Source of the DNA: a virus | Lineage: Duplodnaviria; Caudoviricetes | Virus record (IMG/VR): IMGVR_UViG_3300033067_001333 | Location: 1-40,108 of that record | Length of the DNA stretch: 40,108 nucleotides | Reading direction: 5' to 3' (one strand) | Shown: piece by piece, positions 906 through 32,284 of the stretch | Layout of the letters: every line of letters begins with the position of its first letter | Position numbering within the stretch: position 1 is the first letter of the stretch | Notes under the pieces: generated by a model | What the model saw: the letters and a program-made list of their open reading frames with translations, nothing else | What the model was told of the DNA's origin: nothing | Databases searched by the model: none | Position numbers and translations under genes: made by a program

Positions 906-1399
906 TATTTCCCCCTCTTAAAAATCAGATAATGAAAAGGCAATTTGTCGGCACCAAAAGACTGCGGTCCGTAGACTTCGGCTCCGCACCATCTTAGCCA
1001 CCGAACGCTTTTTTCATAGCGAGCATCAACATAGTTATAAAGCTTCGGGAACATTTCGAGCATCGCCTCAATAAAGAACTTGCATGCTTTCAGAAATGAC
1101 TTAGGAGAACTTGAAACCTTTTCACTCCCAAGAAACCAAATATTTGCTTCTTCGTTATTTTCATTGTCAGGAATGAGTCCGAACATCGCGATAGGCTCAT
1201 CATTTAGTGTTAAAGTATTCCTTACAGTAGAGAATGTGTAAGAAATTAAAAGCGCTTCCTCTGGGCTTTGATGGCCAGCTGCCCATACTTCCGCGATATC
1301 TTCCTTCCTTAAATTATTCCGAAGAAACAAAATGTCCTCTAAAATAGACTCTCTCACACAGAGCGGCCCGTCTTTATAAAGAATCTTCATCTCGCTCAT
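905..1399 (-). CDS. GNAT-fold virion assembly protein (T7 gp13-like)
   Basis: LRxxDxxE, IWFLGS, LYNYVDARYEKSVRWLRWCG motifs. Directly after tail tubular B. Confidence 0.8.
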   Translation of the reverse strand: MSEMKILYKDGPLCVRESILEDILFLRNNLRKEDIAEVWAAGHQSPEEALLISYTFSTVRNTLTLNDEPIAMFGLIPDNENNEEANIWFLGSEKVSSSPKSFLKACKFFIEAMLEMFPKLYNYVDARYEKSVRWLRWCGAEVYGPQSFGADKLPFHYLIFKRGK

Positions 1400-4863: not shown

Positions 4864-5340
4864 TTACGAGTCAAGTCCAAACGAAGACGCGTATTTCGTG
4901 TTTCCTTGAATGTTTTTCAGTAGAGAAACATGGAACTTTCCTGCTGTTAATGCAGCAGTTCCGATGTTCGCATTGCATCCGATGTAACGTTTGTAGGTAG
5001 CGGATGGAACGCGCACGCGGAAGTTATAACCAGCAATAAGTGAAGCTTTGGCGATAGCGCCAGAAGACACGAGGTCAACTGGTGAGGTCGTCAAGTTCGT
5101 TGCTGAGTCCGTACGCAAGCGGAAATCAACTGTTGCTGCACCAGCGGAAGTAACCGCCGTTGTCACCAACACATTGAACCAGACTTCTTCGCCTTGGCCG
5201 AAATCACGTCCGGTGTTTGTTCCTGTAGTTCCGACTCCTCCAAGAGGAGACGTGTCGTGAATGTTTGTTGAGATGTTATCTCCTGTTGCTGTAGGGGCCC
5301 ATGTCCCATCAGCAAACAGCAATTCGTTGTCGATAATCAT
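4864..5340 (-). CDS. Capsid cement/decoration protein (Bbp16-like)
   Basis: MIIDNELLF start, GRDFGQGE, KRYI motifs. Directly after the major capsid gene, AGGAG SD. Confidence 0.85.
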   Translation of the reverse strand: MIIDNELLFADGTWAPTATGDNISTNIHDTSPLGGVGTTGTNTGRDFGQGEEVWFNVLVTTAVTSAGAATVDFRLRTDSATNLTTSPVDLVSSGAIAKASLIAGYNFRVRVPSATYKRYIGCNANIGTAALTAGKFHVSLLKNIQGNTKYASSFGLDS

Positions 5341-5362
5341 TTTGTTCTCCTTTTGGTAATAA

Positions 5363-6388
5363 TTAGCTGATCGTCGATTCTGTGTTCAGAATCTGATCAA
5401 CGCGGCGGATTGGAATACCCATGAAACTTAAACCTCCGGAGATAGGATCTCCGAATTGTCTCAAGGCTGGTTCCACTGCCAAAGCAGTGCTTGACTTTGC
5501 TAACGCTTGAACGCGAAGCAATGAGAACACTGTTCTGTTCATGTAGAACACGGGTTTAATTCCGCTGAAGTATGGAATACGGTCAATGGCGCGGCTCATC
5601 AAGTTCAATAGCTGTTGAGCATTTTGAGTACCAGTTGAACCAACCAAGTCTGAAACGTCGATATTGCAGATACGCGTAACATAACGCCAGTCTTTCAATG
5701 CGATACCACATTTCCATTGCCATCGATCTCTGTAGGCGCGCATTAATGATCCTGCAACACCGGTAGAAACCGTTACGGTCTCTATCCCGAGATCTTCATG
5801 AACCAATCCACCCTTAGAACCTTTAGGGTAAATACCAGTCAATGATTCTGAACCCCAACCAGCCAACCAAACAGACGTATTGTCTGAACCTGATCCACCA
5901 GCCGAGATGACGTTAACACCATTGGTTGCACCAGAGATTTGGTTAAACCGTGGCGCTAATCCAAGGAACCGTTCTGGGTTAACCGAAGTATCACCATAGA
6001 ACAGCGTTTGAATCATTGTTTGATTAATACCTTCAATGAATGCTTTTGCTTCTGACATACGCACGCCTTGGACATCTCCAGCAAGCTGCGCTACGTCCAC
6101 ATCTACTTGACTGTATGCTTCTAGTATTCCGCATTGCTCGTCTAATTGAGCGGTTGTGGATTTACTTGGAGCAACGCCTCCGTTAAGTAGTCTCCATGCT
6201 GGAACAGGCAACCCAGTTCTAACCGTTGTGCGATGTCCAACTGGCAAGTTCCCTTCAATCCATAACATGTCGGCAAGTACGTCGTTTGACTGATTTAGAA
6301 GCTCAATTACATCCGCGATTTTATCGTCTGGATCTAAACGCTTCGCAATATCAGCTAAGTTAAGAGCGATTCCTCCTAATGTAGCCAT
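5363..6388 (-). CDS. Major capsid protein (HK97 fold, Bbp17/epsilon15 gp7-like)
   Basis: EGNLPVGHRTTVRTGLP, FLGLAPRF, DWRYVTRICNID, FMGIPIRRVDQILNTE. Confidence 0.93.
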   Translation of the reverse strand: MATLGGIALNLADIAKRLDPDDKIADVIELLNQSNDVLADMLWIEGNLPVGHRTTVRTGLPVPAWRLLNGGVAPSKSTTAQLDEQCGILEAYSQVDVDVAQLAGDVQGVRMSEAKAFIEGINQTMIQTLFYGDTSVNPERFLGLAPRFNQISGATNGVNVISAGGSGSDNTSVWLAGWGSESLTGIYPKGSKGGLVHEDLGIETVTVSTGVAGSLMRAYRDRWQWKCGIALKDWRYVTRICNIDVSDLVGSTGTQNAQQLLNLMSRAIDRIPYFSGIKPVFYMNRTVFSLLRVQALAKSSTALAVEPALRQFGDPISGGLSFMGIPIRRVDQILNTESTIS

Positions 6389-6390
6389 AA

Positions 6391-6419
6391 GTTTTCTCCT
6401 TTAATTACCAGGAGGCTTA
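6391..6419 (-). promoter_or_regulatory. Anti-SD/SD hairpin in the capsid gene leader
   Basis: Minus strand TAAGCCTCCT-GGTAATTAA-AGGAG-AAAACTT-ATG. CTCCT can pair with the AGGAG SD. The same 10-mer occurs at 32221..32230. Confidence 0.6.
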
Positions 6420-6477
6420 TTGGCCGGAGTTATCTATTTAAAATGCGTCCGTCCGCGTACGTGGTTTGTTTTAATTT

Positions 6478-6585
6478 CTATAAAGAAATTGATTTAAGCC
6501 ATTCTTCCCAAGCGCTAATAATACCCTTCAATAATCGGATGACTTGACTATGAAGCTTTATCGTTGCTGGACTCAATTGACTCAT
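6478..6585 (-). CDS. 35-aa amphipathic helical peptide
   Basis: MSQLSPATIKLHSQVIRLLKGIISAWEEWLKSISL with AAGGA SD right after the scaffold stop. Below the ORF-track cutoff. Confidence 0.75.
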   Translation of the reverse strand: MSQLSPATIKLHSQVIRLLKGIISAWEEWLKSISL

Positions 6586-6596
6586 TTTTTATTTCC

Positions 6597-7265
6597 TTAT
6601 TGTTTTGCAGATGACGGGAACAGGCGATTAAGCCGTGCCGCATCTGTGTTCACATCTGACGAACTACTTTTGCCGTCTTTAAAGCGATCCTCTGCTATTG
6701 CTTTACCAGCCTTAACAAACATGCTTACAATCGCAGGATGATTGCCAAGACCACTCTGGTTCAGAACTTCTAAAACAGAATCGTCTGCAAACTGATCCCT
6801 GAATTTGGCGGCAAAACTTAGTTCTACGGAAGAATTCGGACCGAGGGCTTTTAAGGTCTCGTTTTTCCACGAATCCTGCATAGATTTAAATTCTGCCTCT
6901 GCCTTCTGATTCACTTTAAACTGAAAATCAACCAATTTCTGCGCTGCTTCCTGGGGCAGGTTCAATTCTTTTGCTACGGATTTAAATTCATCCATAACGC
7001 CTTTATCGACGGCTGCTGGGTCAGGAACTGAGAAGTCGGTGTATTGTTCAGGTGCACCAATGATTGCGTTACTGTTAGGCTGCTTTAATGCGTCCGTATT
7101 ACCAGCTGAATCATTGCCAGTATTAGGATTAGCACTGTTTTCTTTCTGGATCCCGCTCGGCGCGTTAGCAGCCGAGACAGGAGATAAAATTGTCGCTTCG
7201 CCATTTGCTGCCTGCCCGCTAACAGGAGCTGACTGCGACACGCCAGGTGCTGGTTGGTTATTCAT
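6597..7265 (-). CDS. Capsid scaffolding protein
   Basis: Low-complexity N-terminus, GAPEQY, AKELNLPQEAAQKLVD, GLGNHP...GKAIAED. Upstream of the capsid gene. Confidence 0.82.
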   Translation of the reverse strand: MNNQPAPGVSQSAPVSGQAANGEATILSPVSAANAPSGIQKENSANPNTGNDSAGNTDALKQPNSNAIIGAPEQYTDFSVPDPAAVDKGVMDEFKSVAKELNLPQEAAQKLVDFQFKVNQKAEAEFKSMQDSWKNETLKALGPNSSVELSFAAKFRDQFADDSVLEVLNQSGLGNHPAIVSMFVKAGKAIAEDRFKDGKSSSSDVNTDAARLNRLFPSSAKQ

Positions 7266-7611
7266 TTGAATCTCCCTCTATTATTGATTTAAGCTCTGCA
7301 TCTAAATTGTCTTTCAATGCTTTTGTTTCTTTACACATCTGCAAGTACTTCTCTTGGTGATCGTTCATCAATTCTTCCAGCAGAAATAACGCCATATCTC
7401 GTTTACCTTCATTCTTTGCCATCTGAATTGGGTTTAAATCAAAACAGCTATGAAAAGCTCGTCCCTCTTGAAGGATCCGCATAACAAATCGTCGTCCCTC
7501 TGGTTTTGACATGACTTCCCTAAAATCGTTTACCTCGCGCTTCCTAACTCGCTCGTTAAAAGACTTCCTTTGATTGTTAATTGTGGCAGCGATGTTGAGG
7601 AAATCGTCCAA
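7258..7611 (-). CDS. Bbp19-like conserved head-module protein
   Basis: VMSKPEGRRFVMRIL...NEGKR motif, between portal and scaffold. TTG start. Confidence 0.8.
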   Translation of the reverse strand: MDDFLNIAATINNQRKSFNERVRKREVNDFREVMSKPEGRRFVMRILQEGRAFHSCFDLNPIQMAKNEGKRDMALFLLEELMNDHQEKYLQMCKETKALKDNLDAELKSIIEGDSNE

Positions 7612-7612
7612 A

Positions 7613-7714
7613 CTAAAACCACCTAAAAATCAAAAATGAAAATGCTGTCCCTATGACAACGCCTACAACAAACCCTAATTGAATTCCGAGGATTAAATTA
7701 GAATCTATAATCAT
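7613..7714 (-). CDS. 33-aa single-pass membrane peptide
   Basis: MIIDSNLILGIQLGFVVGVVIGTAFSFLIFRWF. ATGA overlap with the portal stop, and it fills the gap to the next gene. Confidence 0.6.
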   Translation of the reverse strand: MIIDSNLILGIQLGFVVGVVIGTAFSFLIFRWF

Positions 7715-9408
7715 CGGTTTACCGCCCCAACACCTAGCATTGCGTCTAATGCCGTAGAGTCACCTACCTTAGTGTCAGATAAAACCTTTGCTTGCTGTGC
7801 CATGTTCGCGACTTCATTTGCTTGCTTTTCTTCGTCTTGTTGTTGTGCGCGCTGTTGTCTTAACGCGTTTAATTCTTCTGGGGATCTGACTATCTTTGGA
7901 GGGATCCCGAGCATATCGGCATAACTTCTTATCGCTTCATCTGGATCCAAATTATCAACTGCTGACGGGTACACTGAAACTAAAGATCCTGTGAACCGTG
8001 CAACCTGCTCGATGGACGTCAACCCGACCATCTTCTGCGCTTGTGCCAACATTGAGGTGTACTCAACATGCCATTCCTGGCCCTGCAATTCCTCAGGAGG
8101 AACAGGGATGAGACCAGAACGCAGCATTATGTTGAACGTTCTTTCAATCAAAGGATCCAATAACTCACTTTCTAATCTGTCTAGGACTGGCCCCAGCATG
8201 AGTAGTTTTTCTTCATGTCTTTCAACGATTTCACGAGCCGTCATATTTGGACGATCAGCCTGATAGATCATCAAAAATAAGTCAGCAAAAAACGTTGAGT
8301 CGATCTTTCCAGTTAATTGTTGAATTGCATTATCCATTGACTTTAGGTCAGGGTTTACTTCGTATGCTGCCCGTAACCCCGCGTTTGGAGATGAGCTGGA
8401 TGACCTCGTTATCCCACCTGGTAAGGTATTGATATCTTTTGACACGTTGCTATCAGCTTGCAATGGAGGATCAACAACCTTATCGAGTGCCAAAAGAAAT
8501 ACTTTCTTCATTTTCTGCAACATCTTTACATCACCAATAGCATCCCATCCTGGGCCTCTACCGTACACGTCTGATGTCGTCGTCGTATCCCACCTTGGAG
8601 CCAAGACGGGGAATTCGTTAAATCCAGATACGCTAAGGAATTTATTCTTATCATTGCAGGTCTCTTCCCAATAAATTGACCTATATTCCTTCCCTTGAAA
8701 GTCTGCGCGACCATCAACCCTTTGGTCATTTGGCTCGATTAGGCATCTAACTTCAAAGAATTGGTCCGGCCTGTTGTTTTTCATTGCAATGCGAACATTC
8801 TCAGATATGTTTTCATACCCGAACTCTTCAACCATCTGCATCGCAGTCATCTTGTATTCTCTTCCGAATGTGTTGACTCGACCGCTGCTATCGCAAGCCA
8901 ACACATATTCTCCAGCCGTAAAGTTCCGTCCGCGTATAACCGTTTTATAGTCTTCCACTAAGATCATTGCTGCTGTGCCAAAAGCTCCGACTTCATGGTA
9001 AAGGGAATTCAGCACTCCATAGATATTGGACTTTGAAAACACGCTCAACATGCGATCTTGAACGACTGATAACCATTCCTTAACCGGGTCGTAATTGAGT
9101 AAATCAGAGTCAGATAAAGAAAGCTTAAACCATGGCCTGGAAGGAGACGTTAATCCGCTTGTCATGCCACTGGATAAGATATTTAAAGATCTGGTCGCAT
9201 GTGCATCCAATAATGTCTTGTGGTCAATTTTCTTGCCGTAATTAGGAATATCTCCATCAAAGAACCCTCTTGTTGGAGATATGTAAGTACGTATTTCCTT
9301 AAGAGCTGGCACCCAAGAATCTCTCTCAGACTTAAGATCTTGGAATCTTTTTCTGAAAGTAATCTTCGGGTACTCTTTCGTAAAGCTGCTTTTCTCTGAT
9401 AGTTCCAC
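7711..9408 (-). CDS. Portal protein (head-tail connector, T7 gp8/Bbp21-like)
   Basis: 565 aa. GLTSPSRPWF, VYGRGPG, MTAREIVERHEEKLLMLGPVL, VEYTSMLAQAQK. Confidence 0.95.
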   Translation of the reverse strand: MELSEKSSFTKEYPKITFRKRFQDLKSERDSWVPALKEIRTYISPTRGFFDGDIPNYGKKIDHKTLLDAHATRSLNILSSGMTSGLTSPSRPWFKLSLSDSDLLNYDPVKEWLSVVQDRMLSVFSKSNIYGVLNSLYHEVGAFGTAAMILVEDYKTVIRGRNFTAGEYVLACDSSGRVNTFGREYKMTAMQMVEEFGYENISENVRIAMKNNRPDQFFEVRCLIEPNDQRVDGRADFQGKEYRSIYWEETCNDKNKFLSVSGFNEFPVLAPRWDTTTTSDVYGRGPGWDAIGDVKMLQKMKKVFLLALDKVVDPPLQADSNVSKDINTLPGGITRSSSSSPNAGLRAAYEVNPDLKSMDNAIQQLTGKIDSTFFADLFLMIYQADRPNMTAREIVERHEEKLLMLGPVLDRLESELLDPLIERTFNIMLRSGLIPVPPEELQGQEWHVEYTSMLAQAQKMVGLTSIEQVARFTGSLVSVYPSAVDNLDPDEAIRSYADMLGIPPKIVRSPEELNALRQQRAQQQDEEKQANEVANMAQQAKVLSDTKVGDSTALDAMLGVGAVNR

Positions 9409-19457: not shown

Positions 19458-19696
19458 AAAATCCCTCTTTCAAATAACTCATTCTCTGTAGTAGTCAGCT
19501 CATTTATAACGTTGTCAAAATCCAAGCTAACAACTTCATGGTTAGGAAAATTGTCCCGATGCATTCTTAATTCAGCTTCGTAAAATATTCTTCCACTGCC
19601 ATTTTTAACACACGTCTCACAAACTCCCATAAGACCCCCTAATGAAGATTTATTTTGTTTGCTCAATACGCTTAATATCTGTTTTCCAATAGTCAA
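19454..19696 (-). CDS. Small C2H2-like hypothetical protein
   Basis: CETC...H....PNH. Real start is probably the ATG at 19630. Confidence 0.55.
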   Translation of the reverse strand: MTIGKQILSVLSKQNKSSLGGLMGVCETCVKNGSGRIFYEAELRMHRDNFPNHEVVSLDFDNVINELTTTENELFERGIL

Positions 19697-20618
19697 CCGG
19701 AGGAACTTCGTATGCGTCCCTATGGTGATTCTTTCCTATTATCAGGAAATTCCCGGCAATCCCCTTTGAAACACCTGCCACTCTTTTCTTAATGGATTTA
19801 TCCAACTCTTCGTATCTCGTTTTTGTGCTTTTTAATTTCTCTCTTTCCTCTAAATCAGAAATTAAAACATCATCTGTTAAGATGTTTGCTTCATCCCTAA
19901 CGATGTCTTGCAAGCAAATAGTTGAAAAATCACAATGTCCACACACATCTTCTTTGTACTGAATTCTCTCTGGGAGCATTTTTAGACCTAAATGTTTCTG
20001 AACATTTTCTAACCGTTGGAGCATGTGTTCACATTCAGCGTAATCGAGATACAAAACAAACCATTTCTTCCCACCAAGACAATTTGTTAGTCCAAACAAC
20101 CCATATTCTTTCCCGTGCCCGTATAAGTACATCATCAACTGCCGTGTGTATTTTCTAAGCCATGGCTTCTTTTGGAAATCCTCAATTGAGTTAACGTGTT
20201 CGTAAATATTTGGGTGCATTGATTTAAACTCGACAGGTATTTTTTCTCCTCCCCACTTAATAAATCCATCGATTCTTCCTGTTGCCAGTAATACATCCCC
20301 ACGCCCTTTAACTTGAATCGCTTCCTGTCCACCAACAAAGTCAAATCCCATATCAAGAAGCTCACGAACCATCTCTCTTTCCATTATGTTCCCGACTTCA
20401 AAACGTGCTAGCAATTCAGTGTCAGCAAGTTTTTTATCTCTCCAATTCGTTACGCCATAAACGATCTGACGATCACAATCTCCTAAATCGGAAAGTATTG
20501 GGTTATTTCGTGGGTACGCAGACGATTTCTCATTTAGTCGTTGTATGCGTCGTTTTACTAGCTCGTCTTTCAACGACTCGACTGGGGGAATTATTAACGA
20601 TAGGGCGGGCTCGCTCAT
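19650..20618 (-). CDS. Cas4-like PD-(D/E)XK exonuclease
   Basis: SDLGDCDR, GRIDG, VEFKS, QLMMY, CGHCDFSTIC (1+3 Cys Fe-S pattern). Confidence 0.85.
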   Translation of the reverse strand: MSEPALSLIIPPVESLKDELVKRRIQRLNEKSSAYPRNNPILSDLGDCDRQIVYGVTNWRDKKLADTELLARFEVGNIMEREMVRELLDMGFDFVGGQEAIQVKGRGDVLLATGRIDGFIKWGGEKIPVEFKSMHPNIYEHVNSIEDFQKKPWLRKYTRQLMMYLYGHGKEYGLFGLTNCLGGKKWFVLYLDYAECEHMLQRLENVQKHLGLKMLPERIQYKEDVCGHCDFSTICLQDIVRDEANILTDDVLISDLEEREKLKSTKTRYEELDKSIKKRVAGVSKGIAGNFLIIGKNHHRDAYEVPPVDYWKTDIKRIEQTK

Positions 20619-22225: not shown

Positions 22226-22297
22226 TGGGCAGCACAGGGATTGAACCTGTGACCCCCGTCGTGTGAGGACGGTGCTCTGCCGCTGAGCTAGCTGCCC
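22226..22297 (-). tRNA. trnV: tRNA-Val (anticodon CAC), CCA not encoded
   Basis: GGGCAGC/GCTGCCC acceptor stem, GCTC/GAGC D stem, CCGTC-CTCACAC-GACGG anticodon arm, ACAGG-TTCAATC-CCTGT T arm, discriminator A. Confidence 0.95.
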
Positions 22298-22580: not shown

Positions 22581-23528
22581 TTAATTTTCAGACAAATTAA
22601 ATTCTGGGATGTTTATGTTTGTAATAAATTCTTGTTCTAATTTCCTGGCAGCACTTTTCGCAACTTTCATAGGAGGATCCAAATAAACTTCTGTCATTGA
22701 AATATCTGCGTGACCTAAAAACTTTTGTATTGTTCGTATATCAATTCCTTTCATCAACAAATGCGTTGCGCCTGATCTTCTTAAATCTCTTAGTTGGAAA
22801 TCCACCCCTGAATCATTTTTTGCTCGCTGAAACCTTCTCCTCCAGTTTGTGAAATCACAAATATATTTATGAGTGGCCTTTGAGAAAATAATTTTCACCG
22901 TCAATGTCGCTGGCACATTATATGGGATCCCAGTTTTAGATTGTATGCCGCTAATAGTATCCAAGGCCTTGTTGAGATTCCCATCCTTTAATAAAGCGAT
23001 ATCCTTTCTTCTTAATAAGGTTAAAACAGCTAGCGTGCAAATCTTTCTAACTTCCGGGTGAGCATAATCACAGAATCTCACGAACTCCTCTGCGGTAACA
23101 ACGCGGTTTCGTTTGTACTTTCGCTCATTTTCTTTAGGAACAAGCTCTCCTGGATTCTCTTTTGGCAACTCCAATCTTGAAAAATCATACCCGTTAACCT
23201 TCCCTATGCGTTTCCATTCATAAAAAGCATTTATTACCCTGGTAATTCGTGTATGCTCCCTGTTTACAGAGGACCCTTTAATTAAAATATTTGTTGATTT
23301 CCTCCACCTCCTATAATTCTGCACATCGTTAGATGTTAAGTCGTGTACGAAATTATGCACAAAATATTCGGATATTCTTTTAAGGTCATACTTATGGCTT
23401 CTTCCTGGCAAATGTTTCCCTTCGATATCCCAATATATAGACAAACAATCCCTAAACGTAAGAAATTGTGGATTCCCAAATAATTCAAGTTGATGCGCTT
23501 CCATAATTCCACTCCATTTTGATCCCAA
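22581..23528 (-). CDS. int: Tyrosine recombinase/integrase
   Basis: LLRRKDI (R), QSKTG (K), RDLRRS (HxxR position), LGH, MTEVY (Y). Core-binding domain with SVNRE. 315 aa. Confidence 0.92.
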   Translation of the reverse strand: MGSKWSGIMEAHQLELFGNPQFLTFRDCLSIYWDIEGKHLPGRSHKYDLKRISEYFVHNFVHDLTSNDVQNYRRWRKSTNILIKGSSVNREHTRITRVINAFYEWKRIGKVNGYDFSRLELPKENPGELVPKENERKYKRNRVVTAEEFVRFCDYAHPEVRKICTLAVLTLLRRKDIALLKDGNLNKALDTISGIQSKTGIPYNVPATLTVKIIFSKATHKYICDFTNWRRRFQRAKNDSGVDFQLRDLRRSGATHLLMKGIDIRTIQKFLGHADISMTEVYLDPPMKVAKSAARKLEQEFITNINIPEFNLSEN

Positions 23529-23891: not shown

Positions 23892-24635
23892 ATGCGTAAA
23901 TTACCAATTGTTGTTTTCTCATTATTATTAAGCTTGAAAAGCTATGCCATTACAACCGACAGACCAAATATAAATTTTGGGGTAGAGTTGCTTAGCGGTG
24001 GGGGTGTATCAGATGCTTTTGAAAATGGTGCGAACGACTTAGTGAGCGCCATTAATGGCCTAGGGATACCGGGCCTTATTAGCGGAGAAACAAAGGAAAC
24101 TGGCGGAGCTGGTCTTACTGCGGGCCTGACGTTCCCGAAGAAAAATGACTACGAGTTCGGTTTTCAAACCGGCTTTGGCTTAGGCCCGATAATTACTCAG
24201 GATTATAAAAATGGGTCTTTTGTTTGGCTTCCAACTGGCCAATCTTTTGGGCGTGGGCAATCCAGAGTCACAACCTCTTCTACTTATATGAAATTTCTTT
24301 TTGAGGGTGCCAAATTGTACAGCCTGTCGAAGAATGTGAAGTTGAGATTATGTGCAAAGGCGGGACTGGCTAAGATTAATATCAATCAAAAACTTGAAAC
24401 AACAGGATCTGCAGGAAGCTTAATTTCATTATTAAACCTTGATATACATAACGAAGAAAACGAGAGCGCATCAGGTGCGGCTTGGGAAATTTCTCCATCC
24501 TTAATATTGCCATTTGGTTCAACGGAGCTTGAGGCAGGTTTAAAATATGCCCATTATCCGACTAAGTCTCAATCAGATCAAATATATAAATATGACTGGA
24601 ATCCAGTAGGTTTATTTATCGGAATGCGATTCTAA
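23892..24635 (+). CDS. Outer-membrane beta-barrel protein (lysogenic conversion moron)
   Basis: Signal peptide MRKLPIVVFSLLLSLKSYA, alternating beta strands, C-terminal GLFIGMRF (BAM-type Phe), GGAGG SD. Confidence 0.8.
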   Translation: MRKLPIVVFSLLLSLKSYAITTDRPNINFGVELLSGGGVSDAFENGANDLVSAINGLGIPGLISGETKETGGAGLTAGLTFPKKNDYEFGFQTGFGLGPIITQDYKNGSFVWLPTGQSFGRGQSRVTTSSTYMKFLFEGAKLYSLSKNVKLRLCAKAGLAKININQKLETTGSAGSLISLLNLDIHNEENESASGAAWEISPSLILPFGSTELEAGLKYAHYPTKSQSDQIYKYDWNPVGLFIGMRF

Positions 24636-30738: not shown

Positions 30739-30906
30739 TTATAATGATCCTAAATAATCACTTATTTCTTGTTCAGATGGGATCTGCAAATCTGGATCCA
30801 TCCATGTTACCGTTGTCGAACCGTTTTCATTTTCCCTAAGAATATAATAGGAATTAGGACGAAGTGCTGAAAATGCAACACAGAGTTGCTTGTTAGTAAA
30901 TTCCAT
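30739..30906 (-). CDS. Small tail-fibre assembly protein (XkdW-like)
   Basis: AFSALRPN...W.DP...IPSEQEI. TAATG overlap with the fibre stop. Start moved to 30906. Confidence 0.65.
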   Translation of the reverse strand: MEFTNKQLCVAFSALRPNSYYILRENENGSTTVTWMDPDLQIPSEQEISDYLGSL

Positions 30907-32201
30907 TACACAATCTCCTGGAGCGTTATCGCCCAAGAACGACCATTGCCAAATGATATATTTCCACTTGTTCCATCTGATAAGCCGTATACGGCGTATG
31001 TAGTCGATGAAGTTGTAGCGGGGCTGTCGATCCAAGTTAAGGTAACTGTCCCAAAATTAGCGGCACCTGTTACGCCGACCTGCGCTCCTCCAGACGAGTC
31101 TTGGATATTTGCGGCGTTCCTGAAAATTGCCAATCGCGCTGCGTTTGCTGTGGATGATGGGCAGTTGACAGCTAGCGTAGCCACTATCATGATTCGATTA
31201 GATGCTGATGTTGGAGTAATGTTAGCGGTCACGTTTGTCGCCACAAACGTCGCAGAAGAAGTTGCGGTGTTGGTTGTCCCAGTAGCAAAAACTGTTTGTA
31301 TAACTTTAATCTGCCCGAATGTCGCGGCATCAGAAGACACCGTCCCGTTAGCTACAGTAGTTATTTTCTGAGAGCTCATCCCTATTGGCGACGTAAACGT
31401 TTTAACTCCATTAATCGTCTGAGCCCCATCCGTTAATACAACAGAAGAACTAGTCGTCCCGGGATCTGGAATTGTAAATGTGCGAGCACCGGCTTGAGGA
31501 GCCGCAGTTATGTCGGTTATTGTGTCTCCGGTATTATTAGAAGCTTTTACTCTTAGGCTTCCCTTCAATGCAGTTGACGGGAAAATGCTTAGGCTCCCTG
31601 CTGTTCCACTAGCACCTAAAGATTGATCTGGGTAAATACCTAAGGTTGCCCTTGCGGCTAAAGCTGTAGTATCGTCCAAGACTGTTGACATAAATGCCGA
31701 TACAGGCGTACTCGAGATTCCACTTGCAGGAATGGGGTTCCCGCTTGCGTCGAATGCCAAAAACATAGCCGCGCGGTTTGCGACAGTGGGTAACAAGGTA
31801 TTTGTATCCGTTCCTACTTCAGATTGGGGGAGTTTGATCGATCTGGCCAAAGCTTCCGTTAACTGCTGTACTTGCATGGATGATTTATCTAGGGCTTGTT
31901 CTAAAACCTCGGCATTGAACGGACCCTGATTTTTCCAGTCAACAGATTGGAGCGTATCGACAGATCTGAGTAATGTTATTTTTGATCCAACAGCTAAAGG
32001 GGATCCGGTAGTGGGATATGTAACCTGCTTGTTTGTTGTGTCAACAGTGTAACCGGAAAGCAACAAGGTTGCTACTCCAGACGAGTTTGTAATGTACACT
32101 TGCAAATCTGTTGATACCGATACGGTAAATGAATAACTCCAGACTGTAGTTACGCCATCCCCGTTATAAGTTATTTTGTTTAGTGTTGTAGCAATTGTCA
32201 T
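30906..32201 (-). CDS. Tail fibre protein
   Basis: T7 gp17-type anchor (YNGDGVTTVWSYSF...LEQALDK..M..QQ), AARATLG, and C-terminal ITPTSASNRI...DSPATTS...ITLQEI domain. Confidence 0.88.
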   Translation of the reverse strand: MTIATTLNKITYNGDGVTTVWSYSFTVSVSTDLQVYITNSSGVATLLLSGYTVDTTNKQVTYPTTGSPLAVGSKITLLRSVDTLQSVDWKNQGPFNAEVLEQALDKSSMQVQQLTEALARSIKLPQSEVGTDTNTLLPTVANRAAMFLAFDASGNPIPASGISSTPVSAFMSTVLDDTTALAARATLGIYPDQSLGASGTAGSLSIFPSTALKGSLRVKASNNTGDTITDITAAPQAGARTFTIPDPGTTSSSVVLTDGAQTINGVKTFTSPIGMSSQKITTVANGTVSSDAATFGQIKVIQTVFATGTTNTATSSATFVATNVTANITPTSASNRIMIVATLAVNCPSSTANAARLAIFRNAANIQDSSGGAQVGVTGAANFGTVTLTWIDSPATTSSTTYAVYGLSDGTSGNISFGNGRSWAITLQEIV

Positions 32202-32203
32202 TC

Positions 32204-32264
32204 AAGCCTCCGCAATAGGTAGGAGGCTTAAATGATGAGAGTGTTCGGTTAGAAGTGTCTCATC
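32204..32264 (-). promoter_or_regulatory. SD-sequestering hairpin plus upstream stem in the tail-fibre leader
   Basis: AAGCCTCC-TACCTATTGC-GGAGGCTT-GA-ATG, preceded by a GATGAGA/TCTCATC stem. Confidence 0.7.
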
Positions 32265-32284
32265 GCGAGCTATCAGATTATAAT

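Follow-up and report, generated by a model that had tools for sequence, protein, structure and literature searches.

We describe a family of short peptide genes and a structured leader RNA that stand together before major virion genes of phages. The best explanation is probably that a dimer of the peptide binds the leader RNA, frees the Shine-Dalgarno (SD) sequence, and activates translation of the virion genes. Comparison of related sequences establishes a coding peptide, a covarying RNA fold, tight linkage between the two, and a position before major virion genes; binding, dimerization, activation, action in trans, and purpose are what we infer. The window, by which we mean the whole stretch of DNA analyzed, is a virus record of 40,108 bases. 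Its relevant features, all on the minus strand, are as follows.

5363..6388 (minus): major capsid gene, the likely first target; matches major head family phrog_212 (E 2e-82)
6396..6400 (minus): capsid SD (AGGAG), paired in the predicted ligand-free fold (from sequence and folding)
6407..6464 (minus): RNA motif, capsid copy (strict parse; model R2, 26 bits, E 2e-4)
6411..6416 (minus): anti-SD strand, capsid copy, common to both predicted folds and part of the 10-mer discussed below (from folding)
6478..6585 (minus): 35-aa peptide gene of an unannotated family (profile score 63 bits; predicted single helix)
6597..7265 (minus): scaffold/protease gene (phrog_458, E 2e-39), its stop overlapping the peptide SD
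30906..32201 (minus): tail fiber/spike gene, the likely second target; N-terminal matches to tail and tail fiber PHROGs (best E 3e-21)
32207..32211 (minus): fiber SD (GGAGG), within a perfect long hairpin of the predicted ligand-free fold (from sequence and folding)
32218..32274 (minus): RNA motif, fiber copy (R2, 33.7 bits, E 2e-6)
32222..32227 (minus): anti-SD strand, fiber copy (from folding)

The window carries a podovirus-type late operon on the minus strand, for which PHROG matches give the order terminase, portal/adaptor, scaffold, major head, tail genes, a gene of 2148 aa, and tail fiber; the phage is presumably BPP-1-like. These matches uphold the capsid, scaffold, and fiber identities given in the initial annotation, and the 2148-aa gene upstream of the fiber has an endolysin-like match. 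No exact repeat is shared by the two ends of the window, and they do not connect in frame, so the placement of the fiber downstream in the same operon is presumed. The initial annotation had also described the scaffold-capsid junction as normally tight, which held for 45 of the 76 resolved relatives (gap of ≤38 nt; 80 relatives, 4 unresolved) and failed for 31 (≥109 nt). Scanning of positions 5200 to 7800 for promoters and terminators found no promoter above shuffled sequences and no terminator in the capsid leader. In one wastewater study, metatranscriptome contigs match parts of the window here and there (6284-6478 and 6527-6677 among them) at a depth of 2 to 6, which speaks to presence only and not to strand, level, or translation. 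Elsewhere, the window holds a tRNA gene (22226-22297, minus strand) beside an integrase gene (22581-23528), possibly an attachment site; a Cas4-domain exonuclease gene (19650-20618, minus strand); and a sole long plus-strand open reading frame (ORF) (23892-24635, 247 aa) with no PHROG match.

A conserved peptide gene family

An uncalled 35-aa ORF with its own SD, noted in the initial annotation just upstream of the capsid copy of the 10-mer, is indeed present at 6478-6585 (minus strand). The SD of this ORF (AAGGA) and the scaffold stop codon overlap, with the ATG following 11 nt past that stop; the overlap likely couples translation of the scaffold and the peptide. Among 69 relatives with enough flanking sequence, an overlap of exactly 4 nt between the peptide start and the upstream stop is seen in 28, and the start lies within -30 to +10 nt of that stop in 53.

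The family has the consensus MxPATxxLHETLIRLxKGxISAWExWL. A back-translated pattern matched at least 119 viral loci (about 200 estimated), and 101 distinct peptide-plus-leader records, including the window, were assembled. Loci fetched by capsid similarity carried a homolog at the same position in 2 of 80 cases, both of them one sequence. Across 96 distinct peptide segments, an ATG, GTG, or TTG start codon occupies the same position in 94, and none contains an in-frame stop, compared with 92 and 43 in the other two frames. When counting was restricted to codons outside the search pattern, pN was below pS in 4447 of 4560 peptide pairs, with a narrow margin in the 160 closest pairs (pS 0.38 versus pN 0.33). 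These pattern-free codons retain Thr/Ser, Leu/Phe, His, Ala, and Leu with mixed synonymous codons. By these comparative measures, the peptide ORF is shown to be under protein-level selection and to represent a real gene family.

A profile search returned 390 peptide clusters at an E value of ≤0.001. No Pfam domain occurs among the 120 matches listed of these 390, and the listed clusters are named "hypothetical" save for one exonuclease label, which we take for a misannotation. No family was recovered from Pfam (with the window peptide), NCBIfam (70 members), or the PDB, nor from PHROGs with 70 members, where the best E values were 0.012 to 0.075 in 2 to 3 of the 70. ESM Atlas gave no match of ≥0.9 for the window peptide and no usable match for a second member. 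Searches of 50,697 phage records by tblastn with two family members, and of phage records by blastn with one leader, returned nothing credible, such short queries being weak there.

AlphaFold models the peptide as one helix (residues 6 to 34, pLDDT 93.6), which is amphipathic and Trp-rich. Only three basic residues are conserved (an Arg, a Lys, and a His), a small number for an RNA-binding peptide. Conservation stops at WExWL, and the C-terminal tail varies in sequence and in length, from 18 to 45 codons from the anchor. Two tandem peptide units occur in 4 of 31 full-library matches (P0001, P0006, P0020, and P0028), and one of these tandem proteins models as a helix-loop-helix. Together, the natural tandem units and this model suggest that the single unit works as a dimer.

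A leader RNA linked to the peptide gene

The initial annotation drew attention to a 10-mer, TAAGCCTCCT, of which there are two exact copies, both on the minus strand (6410-6419 and 32221-32230), lying 21 nt before the capsid ATG (6388) and 19 nt before the fiber ATG (32201). In the predicted minimum-energy fold each copy is paired with its SD, the SD hairpin being strong at the fiber (z of -4.5 to -6.8) and modest at the capsid (z of -1.3 to -2.1). Taken alone, the 10-mer is weak evidence: allowing one mismatch gives 5 matches where 2.05 are expected, and as many turn up in 7 of 100 shuffles. The leader, described as about 90 nt, measures 89 nt and contains the 20-mer that had been quoted from it. 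This 20-mer is the 5' half of a conserved RNA motif of which the 10-mer is the 3' strand. What is conserved is larger than the 10-mer, an ~55-nt fold with two internal loops.

From the outside in, the motif consists of a stem of 4 to 5 bp, a 3x3 internal loop, a near-invariant GC/GC doublet, and a 3' bulge, followed by an inner part with a 7-bp stem, a second 3x3 loop, and a variable capping hairpin. The two internal loops are stacked and both are C-rich, and the terminal loop varies in length and sequence. All four stems are backed by covariation or near-invariance. A strict parse of the motif succeeded in 38 of 102 leaders, compared with 0 to 1 in each of 10 shuffle sets. RNAalifold recovered the same fold from 30 strict-parse leaders, a set selected for inner-stem pairing, and three outer pairs that were outside this selection covary too. 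When a motif model was applied to 70 held-out loci, it matched directly after the peptide in 48. The covariation score was 0.62 in the held-out matches, three weak chance rows included, versus 0.19 shuffled, and 0.64 versus 0.18 for 97 sequences. Because the sequences are related and were aligned to fit the structure, independence is lower than the covariation and permutation counts make it seem. In held-out rows with a base at that position, the third base of each loop strand is always C (45/45, 37/37, 37/37, and 45/45), which makes both loops pseudo-symmetric.

Model R2, which was built without window sequences, finds exactly two significant sites in the window, the capsid and fiber copies (matched at 6408-6464 and 32220-32272, respectively), with the next score at 9.8 bits. 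The fiber copy begins about 10 nt past the stop of the 2148-aa gene and has no adjoining peptide gene. At the gathering threshold, Rfam 15 reports only the tRNA in the window and only int-alpA, away from the motif, in 20 related loci; the int-alpA match (L100, 2236-2301, plus strand) is near a peptide locus. Neither the protein nor the RNA was matched in the libraries searched, and the putative regulator family is unnamed. Two simpler origins for the 10-mer were ruled out. It is no chance SD complement, since it belongs to a covarying fold found by an independent model, and no DNA-level operator, since G-U pairs are tolerated and SD complementarity is meaningful only in RNA.

Peptide and motif travel together. 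The motif lies directly downstream of the peptide in 84 of 100 distinct non-window loci (30 from the strict parse and training, 48 held out, 5 by R2, and 1 weak, with an E value of 0.015); in the remainder it is displaced in 2 (L156 and L093) and not detectable in 14. Scans that started from the motif, in which many loci overlap the peptide-first set and several are near-identical, found the peptide upstream in 35 of 37 model-confirmed loci (16, 19, and 2). The exceptions are a locus cut off 21 nt upstream and L312, a 17-kb, 30%-complete record without a peptide in which a strong motif (1000-1055, plus strand, 53 bits) precedes a tail-tube-like gene. Matches without model support at the pattern site were dropped as chance (7 of 23 and 7 of 9, two of the latter being marginal at 15 to 16 bits). 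Among loci related by capsid, the motif is absent from 78 of 80, the same 78 that are without the peptide. Thirteen whole records picked from these 78, which have no peptide at the capsid locus, contain (12 of them being at least 90% complete) no motif anywhere. The co-occurrence on which the initial annotation had staked its proposal is thus found whether one starts from the peptide or from the motif.

Several loci depart from this arrangement. At 10 of the 14 motif-less loci (L094, L107, L115, L117, L120, L123, L124, L155, L182, and L187), an extended peptide ORF, with the peptide still conserved, abuts or overlaps the start of a capsid-like gene. Three peptide genes sit outside the head-tail block: in L272 ahead of a terminase small/large pair, with a weak motif; in L263 behind an integrase, motif-less; and in L089, also motif-less. 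A different conserved ORF of 82 to 83 aa, followed by a TTGACA promoter-like site, lies between scaffold and capsid in L001, L003, L004, L006, L073, and L077; placed ~110 to 530 nt upstream of the capsid start, it is an alternative occupant of the peptide slot.

Sorting of 48 distinct genes downstream of the motif gave 7 major head, 22 major tail, 13 phrog_290, 1 of an unknown family, and 5 with no match. An ~400-aa protein at L261, apparently of the phrog_290 type, matches Pfam Phage_tube_2, and we therefore read phrog_290 as tail tube. The proteins concerned are unrelated, comprising capsids of phrog_212, 617, and 264, several tail-tube families, and a fiber, and the module stands before unrelated bulk subunits in different virion types.

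Among species genomes, the peptide pattern had 46 matches, which profile scores divide into 40 family members and 6 chance matches. Prophage-like loci occur in Delftia, Acidovorax, Comamonas, and Pigmentiphaga, and many further members are in Nitrospirales, where the peptide was present once or twice per genome in all 5 genomes searched, beside apparently non-phage FecR/TPR, DUF7948, Crp, and metallo-hydrolase genes. At the Nitrospirales loci (L254, L255, L256, L259, L262, L264, L267, L271, L273, L274, L280, L290-L294, and L297), the homologs have longer charged tails and lie upstream of signal-peptide-like FecR/TPR, DUF7948, and other genes. Their motifs are variants, in tandem in L294 (1581-1637 and 1715-1770), upstream of the peptide gene itself in L293, L297, and L267, and often 60 to 200 nt from the next start codon. 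This layout leaves room for a second output. Away from the peptide genes, a weak Nitrospirales motif (L334, 1501-1559, minus strand, 25 bits) lies ~200 nt upstream of a response-regulator-like ORF.

Predicted competing folds and candidate modes of action

Folding was compared in 76 leaders with an assignable start, a few of which were mis-picked. For 73 of 76 leaders, the predicted ligand-free ensemble has the 3' strand of the motif paired with downstream sequence instead of its 5' partner, and in 69 at least 4 pairs cover the SD region. Because the strand is predicted to lie mostly over the SD when the RNA is free of ligand, the conserved fold would be the SD-free state. Duplexes between strand and SD at their own locus average -10.9 kcal/mol, a value reached by 0 of 2000 within-type permutations, though individually a leader's own duplex beats the type mean in only 43 of 76. 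The anti-SD layout that had been proposed from the two window copies is conserved across these leaders, and folding shows two mutually exclusive predicted pairings over the SD.

The conserved fold is predicted to be a median of 10 kcal/mol less stable than the SD-paired (OFF) fold. For the capsid copy the energies are -18.4 for OFF versus -9.6 for the conserved fold, a gap of 8.8 kcal/mol, and for the fiber copy they are -27.9 versus -10.0, a gap of 17.9 kcal/mol. For so short a peptide, a predicted cost of 10 kcal/mol would be considerable. When the conserved fold was imposed, modeled SD accessibility gained more than 0.1 in just 45 of 76 leaders; in the 36 of 76 with a long nested terminator-like hairpin it barely rose, from 0.30 to 0.35. 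The conserved fold is already the minimum in three Acidovorax-like leaders. A fold that is under selection yet disfavored on its own points to a ligand or to kinetic capture. Of the two loops, the inner fits both folds and the outer fits only the SD-free fold.

We propose the following sequence of events. The peptide ORF, abutting an upstream structural gene, would be translated by coupling. Covariation shows that the leader is able to fold into a stem bearing two C-rich 3x3 internal loops; free of ligand, the 3' strand of that stem is predicted to pair with the SD instead, the OFF state. A two-fold symmetric peptide dimer would then bind the pseudo-symmetric loops and lock the SD-free fold, the ON state. 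The peptide would work in trans on every copy, here those of the capsid and the fiber, and synthesis of bulk subunits may in this way be delayed or scaled until the upstream assembly genes have been translated.

One alternative, which seems to us unlikely, is that the ribosome translating the peptide ORF, or stalled on it, remodels the leader in cis, as in an attenuator or arrest peptide, and that the free peptide is inert. In its favor, the ORF is almost always followed closely by the motif and is itself coupled to the upstream gene, and most records are single-copy. The spacing, however, is not fixed. The motif starts 5 to 170 nt past the peptide stop (median, 16; 76 loci), the distance from the last Trp to the motif ranges from 23 to 200 nt in the same number of loci, and in L156 and L093 peptide and motif are ~920 nt apart across three inserted genes (L156, 1559-2437, plus strand), which in L156 look like a lysis cassette of holin and spanins. 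Peptide-free copies occur in three records. The window has two motif sites for one significant peptide match. G078 has, ahead of its major head gene, a peptide with its motif, and 7 kb on a peptide-free 47-bit copy flanked by a sheath gene and by a virion gene whose position marks it as the tube. G041 has a weak peptide-adjacent copy and a peptide-free 28-bit copy 6.5 kb on, before a 503-aa tail-region gene. The peptide-free copies and the ~920-nt separation point to action in trans. The variable C-terminal tail holds no conserved stall motif, tandem fusions occur, and a ribosome at the peptide stop would sit on the 5' strand that the conserved fold needs, favoring OFF. Where the initial annotation had left open whether the peptide or its translation acts, the peptide is therefore favored, and the variable spacing and peptide-free copies disfavor translation.

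Co-regulation of several virion genes, also proposed initially, would apply to these three records with a distant second copy and does not extend to most others. An R1 search of 50 records matched 35, each with one copy, and an R2 search of 46 matched 29, of which 27 were single-copy; besides G078, one had a weak second match on the opposite strand. A layout for multi-gene control is real but uncommon.

Comparably improbable is that a peptide-RNA complex acts on transcription or RNA stability, as an N/boxB-like antiterminator or as a cap that protects a processing site. One leader type has a terminator-like GC hairpin and U-run between motif and start, and the Nitrospirales copies, far from start codons and at times tandem or upstream of the peptide gene, would also be in keeping with such a role. 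Nevertheless, no terminator-like hairpin occurs in the other leader type, which comprises 40 of 76 leaders, both window copies among them, and the scan found no terminator-like site between scaffold and capsid. The U-run is absent in several members and pairs back with the A-rich flank of the motif, the terminator-like hairpin is present in both folds in the examples shown, and the complementarity of strand and SD is locus-specific.

We give still less weight to another RNA binder, such as the downstream structural protein in feedback or a host factor, with the peptide a co-traveling minor virion or assembly component. The 14 peptide loci without a motif and the one motif without a peptide would be consistent with this, and an amphipathic Trp-rich helix could be structural. 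Against it, the same motif precedes unrelated capsid, tail-tube, and fiber proteins, and the peptide accompanies the motif rather than a virion type, including in Nitrospirales chromosomes beside non-phage genes. That the peptide instead represses, docking on the inner loop and stabilizing the SD-paired fold, is very improbable: the inner stem-loop is compatible with OFF, but the outer loop is at least as conserved and forms only when the SD is released, and OFF dominates already without help.

Beyond activation by the peptide dimer, a broader reading is put forward tentatively and with rather less confidence. The module could be a portable peptide-sensing riboswitch, in which two symmetric C-rich loops are read by a dimer of a 30-residue helix, and whatever gene lies behind the RNA is turned on. 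It might serve podo-, sipho-, and myoviruses as an assembly meter that ties capsid, tail-tube, and fiber output to translation of upstream assembly genes, and the pair might have been taken into Nitrospirales chromosomes for secreted and outer-membrane proteins.

Comparison with known systems

In tailed phages, the amount and timing of bulk subunits made from one late transcript are usually credited to SD strength and coupling. If our explanation is true, a dedicated mobile regulator with hundreds of members has been left unnamed by gene callers. The pair would be a new minimal peptide-RNA recognition system, of a 30-mer peptide and a 90-nt RNA, and an unnamed portable on-switch for virus assembly, offering synthetic biology a compact SD-level on-switch. 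Nothing listed from the full-text literature searched, which takes in few subscription papers, describes the pair. The motifs of one earlier paper are presumably largely in Rfam. Four motif words had no match in part of the supplement of PMC10690425, where the RNA may stand as an anonymous candidate, and motif terms had none in the main text of PMC11109978.

The closest parallel is Com of phage Mu, described in PMC6483171 as a small phage protein of the same operon that binds a hairpin beside a translation-inhibiting structure and exposes the start signals. Com is there a 62-aa CCCC zinc finger that recognizes GAGNNCC and controls a DNA-modifying enzyme (PMC6483171). As in Com/mom, a small putative activator gene lies upstream of its target in the same operon, with a predicted SD-occluding structure. 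Unlike Com, the peptide is a single helix of ~30 aa, and, in line with the initial proposal of a Com/mom-like logic lacking a zinc finger, none of 70 aligned members shares a conserved Cys. GAGNNCC is absent from both window leaders on direct reading, and the 3' strand of the motif is itself the anti-SD, in a two-loop RNA. Unlike mom, 42 of 48 downstream genes match head or tail PHROGs, and some phages have several sites per genome. The peptide system thus appears Com-like in logic, is unrelated in sequence, and falls outside Com by the tests of membership.

The lactococcal AbiD1 case (PMC2661086) reportedly, by title, involves a phage protein that activates mRNA translation; the target there is a host abortive-infection gene, unlike those described here. 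Arrest-peptide and upstream-ORF attenuators have a fixed spacing from stall or stop to switch and a conserved C-terminal stall motif, in contrast to the variable spacing, ORF-free copies, and missing stall motif found here. In lambda N/boxB, a short helical phage peptide with an arginine-rich motif recognizes an RNA stem in its own transcript that has a conserved terminal pentaloop. Our peptide instead has one conserved Arg and no arginine-rich motif, conservation lies in the internal loops while the terminal loop varies, and the apparent output is access to the SD. ColE1 Rop is a small all-helical binder of kissing RNA loops, and the natural tandem form of the peptide is predicted as a helix-loop-helix; the PDB gave no sequence match, and the best Foldseek E value for the tandem model (2.2) is uninformative for a plain helical hairpin. 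In translational riboswitches, two folds compete for one strand: a conserved one, which is not the minimum when ligand is absent, and one that pairs with the SD. The leaders described here are predicted to share this competition for a strand, and they differ in that the likely ligand is a co-encoded peptide.
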